Positions 7,691 through 13,474 of a stretch of DNA of 64,000 bases are shown here, piece after piece (position 1 is the first letter of the stretch; each line of letters starts with the position of its first letter). This DNA comes from Longimicrobiales bacterium. Lineage in GTDB: Bacteria; Gemmatimonadota; Gemmatimonadetes; Longimicrobiales; Gaopeijiaceae. The translations under genes and the position numbers were made by a program. The stretch lies in contig CBDCNQ010000003.1 in the NCBI GenBank assembly GCA_965219445.1, positions 352,001-416,000 on the forward strand. The letters run 5' to 3'. Under the pieces are notes generated by a model. That model did not search any database. It had not been told where the DNA came from and was given only the letters and a program-made list of their open reading frames with translations.

Positions 7691-7834
7691 TTAGCCTCTC
7701 AGCAGCCGGTCCAACCTCGCAGCCGACTCCTCCTGCATGCCCGGGAGGACGTGCGAATAGGTATCCCTCGTCAGCGTGATCGACGCGTGCCCGAGCATCT
7801 CTTGCACCACCTTCGGATGCTCGCCGTTGACGAG
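7691..7834 (-). pseudogene. Tyrosine integrase C-terminal remnant (~47 codons)
   Basis: LVNGEHPKVVQEMLGHASITLTRDTYSHVLPGMQEESAARLD matches the box II LGH...Y catalytic tail; upstream part replaced by repeat R1. Confidence 0.85.
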
Positions 7835-7844
7835 CCTTACCTGG

Positions 7845-7922
7845 AGTTCCCCTCCCATCCACCGAGTTCCCGCCAGGCAACCCGAGTTTTTGGGGTACCA
7901 CTTGGGGTCCCATAGGCCCCTT
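7845..7922. repeat. Island arm-type repeat R1
   Basis: GAGTTCCCGCCAGGCAACCCGAGTTTTTGGGGTACCACTTGGGGTCCCATAGGCCCCTT. Confidence 0.9.
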
Positions 7923-7927
7923 CCGGC

Positions 7928-7977
7928 GGCTGCTCGGCGCGCAGCGCCGAGCCAACTCCCATTGGAGGTTATGAGCC
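7928..7977 (-). mobile_element. Truncated integron attC-like site
   Basis: Minus strand GGCTCATAAC (R'') then ATGGGAGTTG and the hairpin GCTCGGCGC-TGC-GCGCCGAGC; right half missing; R'' complements GTTATGCGCC upstream of the gene at 9 of 10 positions. Confidence 0.55.
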
Positions 7978-8001
7978 GTTCTTGCGTTGCCCGCAGCCAC
8001 C

Positions 8002-8568
8002 TCAATGGGTGACGAAGTAGTACCACGGTCCTTCGATCCTCTCCACCTGGCCGATGGACCGGCCAAGAAACGGCGATCCATATGGGAGAGGCTGATCCCG
8101 GAAGTATATCGTTCCGTATAGGTGATCGAGCATTCCGCCCTGAACGAAGGCGACGTACCCATCAGTCACCTCTAGCCTCGTGTCGAGAGGCGCCCCGCTG
8201 TCCAGCCGAACCGCGCTATCAGCCCGTTCCATACTGGCCCACGAGCGCCGTACGACTTCCTCCATTGCATTTCTGTTTACTCGCAGGTTGAGCCGCGCAC
8301 CAGCAAGGCCTGATACGCCCACGGAAAAGAGCATCGCCAATAATCCCAGCCCCAGGACGCAGCCGGCCAAGCCAATCTTTTTCCAGGTAGGTCTCACCAT
8401 CGAGAGGACTATTAGTGCCCCACTCGTTACCACGAACGTCAATCCGCCGCAGATCATCAACCAGAATGACCATTCCCTAGCGACGATGGTGAGGAGATTA
8501 CCCAGAAACACGCTCATAGCGCCGATGCCGAGCAGCACCAGGGTAGCAACGTATCCACGCTTGGACAT
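8002..8568 (-). CDS. Hypothetical membrane protein (3 TM plus soluble C-terminus), cassette-like gene
   Basis: ATG at 8568 with GAGG RBS; three hydrophobic stretches; ends IEGPWYYFVTH. Confidence 0.75.
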   Translation of the reverse strand: MSKRGYVATLVLLGIGAMSVFLGNLLTIVAREWSFWLMICGGLTFVVTSGALIVLSMVRPTWKKIGLAGCVLGLGLLAMLFSVGVSGLAGARLNLRVNRNAMEEVVRRSWASMERADSAVRLDSGAPLDTRLEVTDGYVAFVQGGMLDHLYGTIYFRDQPLPYGSPFLGRSIGQVERIEGPWYYFVTH

Positions 8569-8877
8569 TGTTCTACCTCTAACCCAGGGACAACGGCGGC
8601 AGTCGCGCCGCGCCAACGGCATCGTGCCTAAAGACACGCCACCCGATCAGATGAAGAATCTAATCCAAGCGAGAATGGCGCATAACTCGTTGTTTGCGTA
8701 GCCTCATGTCGCCTGCCCCTCCCACCCTAATGGGTTTTGCGACGGGGGTGTCGGTTCAGCGTCGTCCCCGTGGGGAGGCCCGTGTGTGCTCCCGCCCGCG
8801 ACCTCGGACCTGGCAGGGCGTCCCCAGGGCGTCTTGTGCCGAGACTGGTCGCCCCTTTCCCGGGGCCAGAAACGCGC

Positions 8878-8964
8878 AGTTCCCCTCCCCTCCGCTGAGT
8901 TACCGCCACGTAACCCGAGTTCTTGGGGTACCACCTGGGGTACCATAGGCCCCTTTTCGCCCCT
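8878..8964. repeat. Island arm-type repeat R2
   Basis: GAGTTACCGCCACGTAACCCGAGTTCTTGGGGTACCACCTGGGGTACCATAGGCCCCTTTTCGCCCC. Confidence 0.9.
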
Positions 8965-8981
8965 ACCCCACAGACGATCCG

Positions 8982-10440
8982 TTACCGAAAGAGGTCGGCG
9001 TTGACCAGAAAATGCGTCGCAATGCTCGCAGCGTAACCGAGAGCGATCGCCCATGTCCACTTGAGGTGCGAGAGGAACGTATAGATCCCTCGCGCCTGGC
9101 CCATCACCGCGACGCCTGCGGCGGAGCCGACGGACAGCATCGAACCCCCGACCCCGGCGGTCAGCGTCACCAGCAACCACTGGCCGAGACCCATGTCCGG
9201 ACTCATCTCCAGCACGGCGAACATCGCTGGGATGTTGTCGATGATGGCAGAAGCGACGCCCACGATGATGTTCGCCGTCGTTGCGCCCAGCACGCCATAC
9301 AGATAGTCGGAGCTGATCACCAGGTAGCCAAACGCTCCGAGGCCACCGACGCATAGCATGATGCCGTAGAAGAACATGAGCGTGTCCCACTCGGCACGTT
9401 CCAGATTTCGATAGATGTCGTAAGAGCCCTGCGTGCCTTTGCGCACATACATGGACCGCGGGTGCATCCAGCGACAGTGCAGTGTCGAACTCGCCTTCCA
9501 ACGAGTTGCCGAATCGCCGTGAGCGCTCCTGCAGATGGTAGCCGTAGAGCTTGAGGAACCCGAGCCCGGTCATCATGCCAATGACCGGCGGCAGGTGGAG
9601 AAGGTTGTGCGCCATAACGGCCATCGAAATGGTCAGCAGGAATAGGCCGACGACGACCCACGCGCCGTACTGCAACTCCGCCTTCTCGGTCACCGGCTCC
9701 GGCTGCGTTCTCGGCACCGCGAAGGAGATGATGAAGGCGGTAACGACCCAGTTGACGATCGACGGAACGACCAGTGCGAAGAACTCGGTGAACTCGACCT
9801 GCCCCTTCTGCCAGACCATCAGCGTCGTAATGTCACCGAACGGGCTGAAGGCGCCCCCCGCGTTGGCGGCAACAACGATGTTGATGCAAGCGATCGCGAT
9901 GAAGCGGTGATTACTCCCGCCTACCGCCATGACCACGGTAGACATGAGAAGTGCGGTGGTCAGGTTGTCCGCGATGGGTGACATGAGGAAGGAAATCACA
10001 CCGGTAATCCAGAAGATCTTGCGTAAGGAAAAGCCCTGGGAAACCAGCCAGACGCGGAGTACATCGAACACTCCCCGCTCCTCCATCGTGTTGATGTAGG
10101 TCATCGCCGCCAGAAGGAACAAGAAGAGCTCAGCAAACTCGAGCAGATCATGGCGGACGCCTTCCGCGATCAGTTCGGTCTCGCCGGCCTGCGTGAATGC
10201 GATCGCAACCAGCGCCCAGATCAAGCCTGCGGCAACCATTACCGGCTTCGACTTCCGCAGGTGAATCGTTTCCTCGGCGATCACCAGCGCGTAGGCAAGC
10301 ACAAATAGCACCAGCGCCGTAATTCCGGCCCAGTGCGAGGTGAAGTCGAGTTGGACCAGCTCAGCCTGGGCCGCCGCCGGGGTCGCAGATATCAGGAGGG
10401 CGGCCAGGCCGGCGAGGGTGATCAGGGCTATTGATTTCAT
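8982..10440 (-). pseudogene. nhaD: NhaD-family Na+/H+ antiporter, frameshifted near 9430-9480
   Basis: N-part EETIHLRKSKP, SPIADNLTTAL, ANAGGAFSPFGDITTLMVWQ in one frame; C-part RAEWDTLMFFYG, SAIIDNIP, GGSMLSVGSAAGV in another; span 1459 nt is not a multiple of 3. Confidence 0.85.
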
Positions 10441-10520
10441 TGATCCTCGTCAGGGCTCGCAGCACGAAGGGCGTCCTGGAGCCAACAAGCTATCGAATAC
10501 GCCGCCTTCGGTCTCAAGAA

Positions 10521-10612
10521 CCGGCGTCCTAACGGCTCCCACTCCCTGAGTTCCCGTCAGGCAACCCGAGTTTTTGGGGTCCGACTTGGGGTACCAAAGC
10601 CACCTTTTCGCC
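10521..10612. repeat. Island arm-type repeat R3
   Basis: CCGGCGTCCTAACGGCTC...GAGTTCCCGTCAGGCAACCCGAGTTTTTGGGGTCCGACTTGGGGTACCAAAGCCACCTTTTCGCC. Confidence 0.9.
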
Positions 10613-12525: not shown

Positions 12526-12530
12526 CACCA

Positions 12531-12567
12531 AAAAGCCGGAAGCCCAGATACTGCCTGGACCTCCGGC
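12531..12567 (-). terminator. Intrinsic terminator after the duplicated tRNA 3' end; target of the class C intron
   Basis: GCCGGAGGTCCAG-N7-CTGGGCTTCCGGC followed by TTTTT on the minus strand. Confidence 0.8.
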
Positions 12568-12570
12568 CAA

Positions 12571-12612
12571 TGAGCCGGGTGGGTCTCGAACCCACGACCT
12601 ACGGATTAAAAG
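12571..12612 (-). repeat. 42-bp exact duplication of the tRNA-Lys 3' half (att site)
   Basis: Identical to 13402-13443; identity starts exactly at the anticodon loop CTTTTAA. Confidence 0.95.
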
Positions 12613-12646
12613 ATCGATAGCATCATATACGCAGGGCGGCACTAAT

Positions 12647-13141
12647 CTATTTTCTCCCAAGAATTAACACTATTTCTTTTGGTTCCAACGTTTCGGATCC
12701 TCCTGTTGGTAGTTGAACTCTTGTTTGAGATGTTCCGCTTGTAATATTGATGAAATTCTTCCCCTGTTCCCATATTGCTGCCCTAGAGCCCATGACGCTT
12801 AGGTTCTGGCTAGGTTGTCCATTGCTTTCAATAAATTCATTGAGGACCGATTCGAATTCTGTCGTTGTTGTGAATAGAATGACGATCCCTATCAATTTTT
12901 CGTTTTGAACAAAGTATTGACGCTTTTTAAAACTCTCCCGCGCTGGCCGTTGGAACACCAAGAGTGCATTACCATTTTCATCCCGAATCTCTTGTGGTTG
13001 CGATAAATCGGAATAAAGATTTTGAAACTCTGTCAAAGACATATCGATGTACGCACCATCGAATCGTGGTGCGGGTTTGCTGCAACCAGTCGACAACGCC
13101 ATGAATAAGAAGGCGAGGAATCCTCTATGGATTTTCAACAT
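12647..13141 (-). CDS. Hypothetical lipoprotein, low GC
   Basis: 164-aa ORF with signal peptide ending LSTGC; about 40% GC on a sampled 60-nt line versus GC-rich flanks. Confidence 0.8.
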   Translation of the reverse strand: MLKIHRGFLAFLFMALSTGCSKPAPRFDGAYIDMSLTEFQNLYSDLSQPQEIRDENGNALLVFQRPARESFKKRQYFVQNEKLIGIVILFTTTTEFESVLNEFIESNGQPSQNLSVMGSRAAIWEQGKNFINITSGTSQTRVQLPTGGSETLEPKEIVLILGRK

Positions 13142-13251
13142 GATACCGTCGTTTCTCTATGTTATCATTTACATACGGGGCTTCCGTATAACTTGCTGCA
13201 CTTTTCATTTTGATACCAGGCATTTTTTTGGGAACCCGTTACGCTGCATTT

Positions 13252-13345
13252 CCGGCGTCCTAACGGCTCACATCCGCTGAGTTCCCGCCAGGCAACCTGA
13301 GTTTTTGGGGTACCACTTGGGGTACCATAGCCCCCTTTTCGCCCC
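13252..13345. repeat. Island arm-type repeat R4
   Basis: CCGGCGTCCTAACGGCTC...GAGTTCCCGCCAGGCAACCTGAGTTTTTGGGGTACCACTTGGGGTACCATAGCCCCCTTTTCGCCCC. Confidence 0.9.
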
Positions 13346-13365
13346 CTCACTCACCGACGCGAGAA

Positions 13366-13399
13366 AGCCGGAAGTCCTCTACCTACAGGACTTCCGGCT
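13366..13399 (-). terminator. Terminator hairpin after tRNA-Lys
   Basis: AGCCGGAAGTCCT-N8-AGGACTTCCGGCT, perfect 13-bp stem, followed by a short T-rich run; homologous to the 12531-12567 hairpin. Confidence 0.8.
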
Positions 13400-13401
13400 A
13401 G

Positions 13402-13474
13402 TGAGCCGGGTGGGTCTCGAACCCACGACCTACGGATTAAAAGTCCGTTGCTCTACCAGCTGAGCTACCGGCTC
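13402..13474 (-). tRNA. tRNA-Lys (anticodon UUU), CCA not encoded
   Basis: GAGCCGGTAGCTCAGCTGGTAGAGCAACGGACTTTTAATCCGTAGGTCGTGGGTTCGAGACCCACCCGGCTCA folds as a cloverleaf. Confidence 0.97.

Follow-up and report, generated by a model that had tools for sequence, protein, structure and literature searches.

In cis-mobilizable elements (CIMEs), described for the ICESt1/ICESt3 family, the genes for integration and transfer have been lost, attL and attR have been kept, and accretion has stacked elements in tandem at one target, including tRNA-Lys (PMC5704250). In Dehalococcoides, islands stand in tandem behind the single RNA gene ssrA with a target repeat and a conserved adjacent motif, and 15 of them carry no integration module (PMC3146451). 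The tycheposon islands of Prochlorococcus are seeded at a tRNA gene, with new elements proximal, partial tRNAs and integrase fragments distal, and autonomous elements rare and transient (bioRxiv 10.1101/2020.12.28.424599). In the additive flexible islands of Alteromonas, a conserved tRNA gene is targeted by gene cassettes whose number varies among strains (PMC4119200), and integrons stockpile unrelated genes at one locus, with variable content and order and a group II intron at a junction (PMC7923331). We analyzed a locus that shares these traits, an array of small accessory genes behind a tRNA-Lys(UUU) gene of an uncultured Longimicrobiales bacterium (Gemmatimonadota; assembly GCA_965219445.1). 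The window, that is, the whole stretch of DNA analyzed, comprises 64,000 nucleotides (contig CBDCNQ010000003.1, positions 352,001 to 416,000). An original prediction, made from the letters of the window alone, had described positions 7691 to 13474 as an integron-like array in which a conserved repeat (R1 to R4) separates single co-oriented genes. We found that a family of integrase-less units stands in tandem behind tRNA-Lys and that the repeats form the ends of these units on the tRNA side; the array is best read as CIME-like tandem accretion and erosion with a second layer of reshuffling inside the repeat itself.

The locus departs from each of the described systems. Compared with CIMEs (PMC5704250), no integrative and conjugative or mobilizable element with a cognate integrase lies in the array, the units are small, one end is often lost, and flanks are reshuffled across an arm-bearing repeat. 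The mapped units held integrase remnants only and no complete integration genes (transfer-gene annotation covered little of the relatives' cargo), and no autonomous element was seen in any array; tandem stacking at the target with a displaced tRNA fragment at the junctions was present, as in CIME accretion. The Dehalococcoides islands involve the serine recombinase DsiB at tmRNA and many of them keep their module (PMC3146451), whereas the remnants here are those of a tyrosine integrase. In the tycheposon account as available, no long two-ended arm repeat between single genes is described, and integrase and host differ (bioRxiv 10.1101/2020.12.28.424599); the Alteromonas cassettes are large clusters, and the portions of that source consulted describe no arm-repeat anatomy (PMC4119200). 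The integron analogy of the original prediction did not survive comparison with the attC definition as given in PMC7923331: the array has no attC hairpin and no intI or attI, its cargo is not co-oriented, its units may hold several genes, and 32 of 67 repeat ends are ragged on the tRNA side. The only intI of the genome above cut-off lies far from the array (C2:398589-399521; TIGR02249, 345 bits against a cut-off of 265), and the array's integrase tail falls into another subfamily, its full-length relative P0013 scoring 37 of those 265 bits. Among the signs listed for anticodon-loop islands in tRNA genes (PMC4383910), a 3' tRNA fragment lies downstream in the same orientation with identity ending at the anticodon loop, but the tandem members do not each possess their own integrase. 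In the literature covered, mostly open-access main texts, we found neither this element family nor tRNA arrays of Longimicrobiales described.

Window coordinates are used throughout. G000 is the genome of origin (4.56 Mb), with C2, C3, C4 and C5 its contigs; G004 to G007, G008, G010 and G267 are related or other genomes, L-numbers are fetched sequence loci, mostly metagenomic, and P-numbers are database proteins; no conclusion depends on G025, an unpublished genome. A denotes the tRNA-side element end (R1 to R4 type, A1 to A4 in the array), and B denotes the opposite end. The tRNA-Lys gene, R1 to R4, the tRNA 3' duplicate, the terminator, the group II intron, nhaD, the low-GC lipoprotein-type gene and the integrase tail were all present as placed by the original prediction (Table 1). 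The four direct repeats, beginning near 7837, 8870, 10521 and 13252, are identical to one another at 55 to 64 of 70 bases, and their 21-base core matched four times in the window and never in 100 dinucleotide shuffles; the tRNA 3' duplicate (12557-12612 versus 13388-13443) is 95% identical. Contigs of public run X1 reproduced positions 7867-8711, 8819-10575 and 12605-13428 with zero differences, and contigs of run X2, from another study, covered 7886-8489, 8855-10575 and 12577-13306 with 0 to 3 differences. X1 may be the sample of origin; the contigs reproduced the three small units, and none of them spanned the array. RNA runs contained only a small part of the window. These contigs, together with the limited identity among R1 to R4, ruled out an assembly artefact.

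Read from the tRNA, the order is A4, lipoprotein-type gene, 22 bases of B, core, tRNA 3' half, terminator, intron, A3, nhaD, A2, membrane-protein gene, A1, integrase tail, ABC transporter, hydrolase, glycosyltransferase, and B without core. The predicted order of cargo and junctions was thereby confirmed overall, with two corrections: nhaD is frameshifted (an X2 contig has a short indel difference at this site, ~9445), and a tRNA fragment is found only at the R3 junction, the R1 and R2 junctions having neither tRNA fragment nor terminator. Since B-ends lie at 915-1004 and, truncated, at 12613-12634, the array reaches well to the left of the stretch first noted; it continues past the window edge and is 12.5 kb or longer, and the array of G007 has among its cargo genes that here lie left of the window.

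A profile built from R1 to R4 found 8 strong, clustered copies in the genome, four of them outside the window. The A repeat spans about 90 bases, including a nearly invariant block of about 30 bases, and carries a TGGGGT-N6-TGGGGT pair. The same pair also marks a second sequence type, B (window 915-1004, C4 and C5), so that the repeat is not the sole cassette boundary that had been proposed. In eight complete junctions (seven distinct), the plus strand reads A, 30 bases, terminator, tRNA-Lys 3' half and about 140 bases of B; the tRNA half extends to the anticodon loop and stem, and B terminates in the TGGGGT pair as A does. An attP, or the joint of two tandem elements, would have this layout in the anticodon-loop class of tRNA islands (PMC4383910). 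The tRNA-Lys(UUU) gene is likely the integration target, with a predicted crossover at the anticodon loop, and both tRNA-Lys isoacceptors serve as targets (CTT in L049). The A/B-marked units are likely the leftover ends of one mobile-element family. Visual inspection had suggested that A and B are homologous outside the arm pair as well; this was rejected, as 729 of 1000 shuffles scored equally well. The arm-type site is, as a concept, general background; the TGGGGT pairs are predicted to be such integrase sites because of their position and because a pair of the same type lies upstream of another tRNA-linked integrase (C2). RNA folding of R1 to R4 on both strands (8 folds) gave z values of -0.72 to +1.23 and no hairpin. 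A promoter scan of A found no promoter-like site that could drive cargo, and the sole promoter-like site, before the lipoprotein-type gene, was at chance level. Two further A/B clusters (C5:884000-925000 and C4:1032000-1036500) have no intact tRNA-Lys adjoining. In the C5 cluster, a junction of A, intron, terminator and tRNA fragment is 99.8% identical to window 10546-12634 with different cargo on both sides, and a 1.6-kb MarR/NmrA-like block overlapping window 1-883 has a duplicate there; these near-duplicates reflect either recent duplication or a strain mosaic.

Of 401 genomes sampled from the order, 19 carried the A-end, the genome of origin counted (18/256 in its own family; 0/71 and 0/73 in other families), and exact 23-mer matches were found in 50 metagenome stretches; named records with the repeat were mostly metagenome-assembled genomes (MAGs) of Longimicrobiales or Gemmatimonadota. 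Tandem arrays stood at tRNA-Lys in G004 to G007, G010 and L136 and at tRNA-Lys(CTT) in L049, in agreement with the predicted anchoring. The arrays of G004 to G007 and G010 occupy the same tRNA gene with different cargo, beside rnhB-rplS-trmD-rimM where the fetched stretch extends that far; G006 and the genome of origin have additional clusters without an intact tRNA-Lys alongside. With its 8 strong clustered copies in the genome, 3 to 5 matches in each of five relatives and no fold, the repeat does not behave like a repetitive extragenic palindrome or a MITE (miniature inverted-repeat transposable element), the outcome that would have spoken against the original prediction. A-ends also occur in contigs labelled Dehalococcoidia (L050) and Thermoplasmata (L056); because their cargo is 98% identical to that of the window, the labels suggest misbinning or very wide transfer.

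When the identity of units was compared with that of neighboring core genes, the membrane-gene unit reached 95.7% against 82.2% for the core (G004), the glycosyltransferase-hydrolase unit 98.4% against 84.7% (G006), and the glycosyltransferase 99.0% against 82-87% (G007). Overall, shared units were 95-99% identical across species whose core genes were 82-87% identical. Unit content and order varied among relatives, as had been predicted, by gain, loss and reordering, and for two pairs of units the order is reversed. In L050 the SelO unit lies nearer the tRNA than the membrane-gene unit, in L154 farther from it, and the glycosyltransferase unit and an eight-gene cluster (F13-F30) change places between G000 and G007. 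Units that lack an integrase and have both ends measure 2.55, 3.4, 3.7, 6.5 and 15 kb; attL and attR sequences were both kept in G006 (2.55 and 3.4 kb), G007 (6.5 and 15 kb) and L132/L136, and in none of the units of the window. The three cargo units within 7691-13474 are single-gene and co-oriented, but the rule of one repeat and one co-oriented gene drawn from them did not extend further: complete units contain 2 to 12 genes, and by our gene calls only 19 of 48 distinct genes adjoining A are co-oriented with the tRNA, the other 29 being opposite. A copy of nhaD in G008 (93.6% identical) has no A or B end within 1.5 kb. Database relatives of the 188-aa membrane protein and of the 164-aa lipoprotein-type protein are unnamed proteins only.

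The proposed link to a tyrosine integrase was borne out. In the window, the integrase tail is fused to R1, and a tail directly adjoins A in seven further loci, all metagenomic (L111, L126, L130, L132, L136, L141 and L153), three of which represent one unit. The tail lies within units bounded by B and A in L111/L132/L136 and in the window, and at the A side of a core-B unit in G267. Full-length relatives of the tail, to which it is 92% identical, are 386 to 425 aa long and carry PF00589, some also PF14659; those from metagenomes have intact catalytic motifs and 65-90% mutual identity, and one member of the protein cluster is named from a Gemmatimonadota MAG. Database proteins were found in which read-through of A is fused to the integrase at residue 132, 374 or 380 and other array DNA at residue 81, 335 or 381; DNA loci add breakpoints at 338 and 382. 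We infer that the integrase gene once stood beside A, reading away from the tRNA, and was repeatedly lost from its 5' side, because the remnants join array DNA at so many breakpoints.

The genome of origin holds no intact cognate integrase, as the original prediction had it for the window. Its 68 tyrosine-recombinase matches were rejected as partners in trans, none exceeding 30% identity to the tail or to the full-length family. The 52 that were extracted include groups of 25 and 13, and several open reading frames turn up repeatedly with the same score, which hints at active mobile elements based on recombinases. A P4-like integrase (C4:1042212-1043708) behind a tRNA-Lys(CTT) 3' fragment was also rejected as a partner, its repeats being different; it has three to four tandem 11-base repeats upstream, is 99% identical in G000 and G007 (L051), and represents a second element family that uses this target. 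Among 314 family genomes (best five candidates per genome), 20 matched at E <= 1e-30, the best full-length candidate at 47% identity. When all candidates were scored in five array-bearing genomes, remnants or a weak match were obtained and no full-length close relative. Scans across GTDB returned one 87% remnant with distant relatives, and another remnant with a XerD-like gene; IMG/VR gave nothing above 58% and no B-end, and all plasmid matches were below 60%. In contigs extending past the tail, the pieces continue, with no joint of a longer integrase to A.

Erosion of the ends and recombination within A were both evident. The 67 non-redundant A-ends divide into 32 that break off short of the core at scattered positions (one split by the intron; R1 and R2 included), 21 that stop at the core (4 of them in an intact tRNA), 3 that stop within B, and 11 that run through full B. 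The cargo-side end of A tapers over about 40 bases (54 copies), and the identity of B falls from 0.90 to 0.27 within 10 bases behind the arm pair (18 non-redundant copies; the prior removal of flank-sharing copies sharpens this drop). In a flank comparison from which five rows that did not anchor were left out, the right junction of the membrane gene was found with three left flanks, namely, the integrase tail (G000), another sequence (G004) and SelO (L154), and the right-hand partners of the SelO left flank numbered at least four (the tRNA, two other cores, the membrane gene and a lipoprotein junction). Among 60 distinct A copies, there are five pairs in which the left 38 bases are identical and the right sides 58-87% alike, and eight in which the right sides are at least 93% alike and the left sides 47-79%. 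Because flanks exchange and the left and right sides are nearly unlinked, the crossovers appear to fall inside A, away from the tRNA core. In the invariant block, orphan A copies matched the consensus at 596 of 660 positions and core-linked A copies at 569 of 660 (genome-derived copies), a comparison confounded by the more distant genera in the core-linked group; the lack of greater decay in orphan A-ends is consistent with youth, with gene conversion or with selection.

We consider it probable, with appreciable room for doubt, that an integrase made the accretion at the anticodon core, that the integrase and often B and the core were then lost, and that recombination between A repeats followed. 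In this model, an autonomous element with its integrase next to A, or a unit served in trans by a putative arm-binding enzyme, would integrate at the intact tRNA and displace older units outwards. Deletions would then take the integrase from its 5' side and often also B, core and terminator; units such as those at R1 and R2 would thereby be locked against recombination at the core. The remaining A repeats, with their block of about 30 bases, would act as homology patches for host recombination, presumably by RecA, through which units of A and a gene would be deleted, exchanged and reordered within and between genomes. The A/B remnants probably now permit the addition and reshuffling of genes although they bring no enzyme gene along. 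The differing crossover windows between pairs favor homologous recombination over one fixed site, in data whose linkage is too weak everywhere to decide. Several observations weigh against this model. Values of r2 were 0.046 and 0.051 on either side of A, 0.024 across it and 0.017 for unlinked positions; linkage is weak on both sides of A too, and the breakpoint therefore cannot be placed. The flush end of B has no explanation in random erosion. A full-length cognate integrase next to an A-end was seen in no DNA, and the read-through upstream of the full-length proteins contains an arm-pair-like peptide, PQLVPQ, and otherwise matches neither A nor B, so that these integrases may be those of a sister element. 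At least two other integrase families have also left remnants in such arrays, and no excised circle or empty site was present among the joints listed (15 of 50) from public-run contigs. Most metagenome loci were chosen by an exact 23-base match, which inflates conservation there.

Some of the same observations have been weighed under other explanations. A rather unlikely one is that the arm-bearing repeat is itself the site of cassette exchange, a rare travelling integrase acting at the arm pair and not at the tRNA core; if true, an orphaned att arm would be kept family-wide as a standard docking sequence at which units of one gene each are excised, transferred between species and put back in whatever order, an integron equivalent made of phage-type att parts. 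We think it quite unlikely that A belongs to a dedicated integron-like system, with A as a site-specific cassette site, the integrase in trans, no need of the tRNA core, and A plus a gene as the mobile unit. The exchange of flanks across A, the preservation of orphan A-ends, the flush end of B, A-left/B-right hybrids (G005 J17-88, L122 and L124) and, in four runs, many different contigs that join A at about one left point are all as such a system would have them; yet the crossover windows vary between pairs (some left of the arm pair, some within it and some to its right), the right ends of orphan A copies scatter over 100 bases and the left end tapers over 40, hairpin and promoter-like site are missing from A, and the decay comparison carries its confounder. 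The original prediction had named eroded debris of repeated island insertions as its alternative, and here the outcome was mixed: the scattered cuts, R1 and R2 among them, agree with random erosion, as do the many integrase breakpoints, the frameshifted nhaD, a window in which every unit has lost an end and the lack of a full integrase in the genomes searched. That the units are inert today, however, we hold to be improbable, since they are 95-99% identical between species with 82-87% core identity, occur in reversed orders and, in G006 and G007, include integrase-less units with both ends intact. Very doubtful, finally, is a host-only hotspot in which an integrase seeded the repeats long ago and present exchange is homologous, or homology-facilitated illegitimate, recombination anchored on tRNA, terminator and A. 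recA and comEC are present in the genome, the junctions that are ragged on one side agree with an anchor combined with an illegitimate joint, nhaD of G008 stands free of A and B, and array-bearing genomes yielded no integrase. In contrast, the 11 of 67 A-ends that pass the core into a complete, well-conserved B (arm region, 175 of 189 consensus matches) suggest continued use of the att structure, and metagenomes hold full-length, mutually related integrases with intact catalytic motifs.

Table 1. Features of the tRNA-Lys array in the window, listed outward from the tRNA gene
Feature	Position	Strand	Remarks
tRNA-Lys(UUU), array anchor	13401..13474	-	identity of the duplicate stops at anticodon loop/stem
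Terminator-like hairpin, brought by element end	13347..13400	-	seen in sequence, not called by the terminator scan; same hairpin in relatives' complete junctions
R4, A-end joined to terminator and tRNA	13252..13346	+	TGGGGT-N6-TGGGGT pair at 13306-13323, predicted arm-type sites
Cargo: 164-aa hypothetical protein, lipoprotein-type N-terminus, 42% GC	12647..13141	-	single copy in genome; no Pfam or NCBIfam match
B-end cut to ~22 bases, without arm pair	12613..12634	+	equals start of full B-end at C5:914 kb
tRNA-Lys 3' half	12571..12612	-	core 12604-12612
Intrinsic terminator, 15 pairs and U run	12529..12568	-	terminator scan (call given as 12534-12568)
Group II intron with reverse transcriptase/maturase	10626..12528	-	13 genome copies, 98-100% identical
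R3, A-end separated from its own terminator by the intron	10509..10625	+	
Cargo: nhaD Na+/H+ antiporter	8982..10440	-	NF038006 matches both halves; frameshift near 9445
R2, orphan A-end	8865..8975	+	ends just short of terminator
Cargo: 188-aa membrane protein	8002..8568	-	unit 95-98% identical in G004, L050, L129, L154
R1, orphan A-end	7838..7928	+	right junction common to G004, L129, L154; left flank differs
Tyrosine integrase tail, last 49 codons, fused to R1	7691..7840	-	residues 374-422 of P0013, 92% identical
Cargo: MacAB-like ABC transporter operon (RND adaptor, ATPase, permease)	4289..7547	-	
Cargo: metallo-beta-lactamase-fold hydrolase	2869..3819	+	together with next gene 98% identical in G006
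Cargo: family-2 glycosyltransferase	1110..2345	-	98-99% identical in G005, G006, G007 arrays
B-end with arm pair 982-999, without tRNA core	915..1004	+	closes 7-kb unit B-cargo-integrase tail-A

The group II intron sits directly behind the tRNA terminator, which is its 5' exon, and many of its 13 copies, judged by eye, lie behind stem-loops. Group IIC introns insert right after a terminator stem-loop (PMC7923331), and the insertion behavior here appears IIC-like from the sequence context. One copy connects an unrelated 5' exon with an A-end, a sign that some A-ends may have been carried off the tRNA by recombination between introns.

A perfect 21-base inverted repeat (925-945 and 4026-4046) places a reversed fragment of B 3 kb from the B-end. 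These inverted fragments bracket the glycosyltransferase and hydrolase genes, and the hydrolase part is inverted in L061. A non-coding sequence of about 160 bases (4082-4244) has at least four further genome copies of 88-90% identity, two of which lie close to other loci of interest, and is possibly a small MITE or the end of an insertion sequence. On the other side of the array, between tRNA-Lys and rnhB (13925-17961), lie two tandem paralogous genes for LamG/PKD surface proteins with acidic tails, which vary in number and length among relatives and are lacking in G004 and G007. At 20473-21549, rpsP (S16) bears a long Glu/Ala/Pro- and Lys-rich repeat extension whose length is variable among relatives. 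Elsewhere in the genome, 17 tRNA genes lie within 2.4 kb (C3:31920-34298).

If accretion, erosion and recombination between A repeats are the correct reading, an uncultured family without a resident cognate integrase would still swap small accessory genes between species at one tRNA gene, by way of the integration of rare elements, their erosion and reshuffling through the leftover repeat. The array is of special value for its evidence of recombination within the arm repeat. With dozens of junction variants, A and B ends that are defined, and candidate integrases of full length, the family makes an unusually rich test set, with which it may be tested directly whether tRNA arrays that lack an integrase are debris or live cassette systems.

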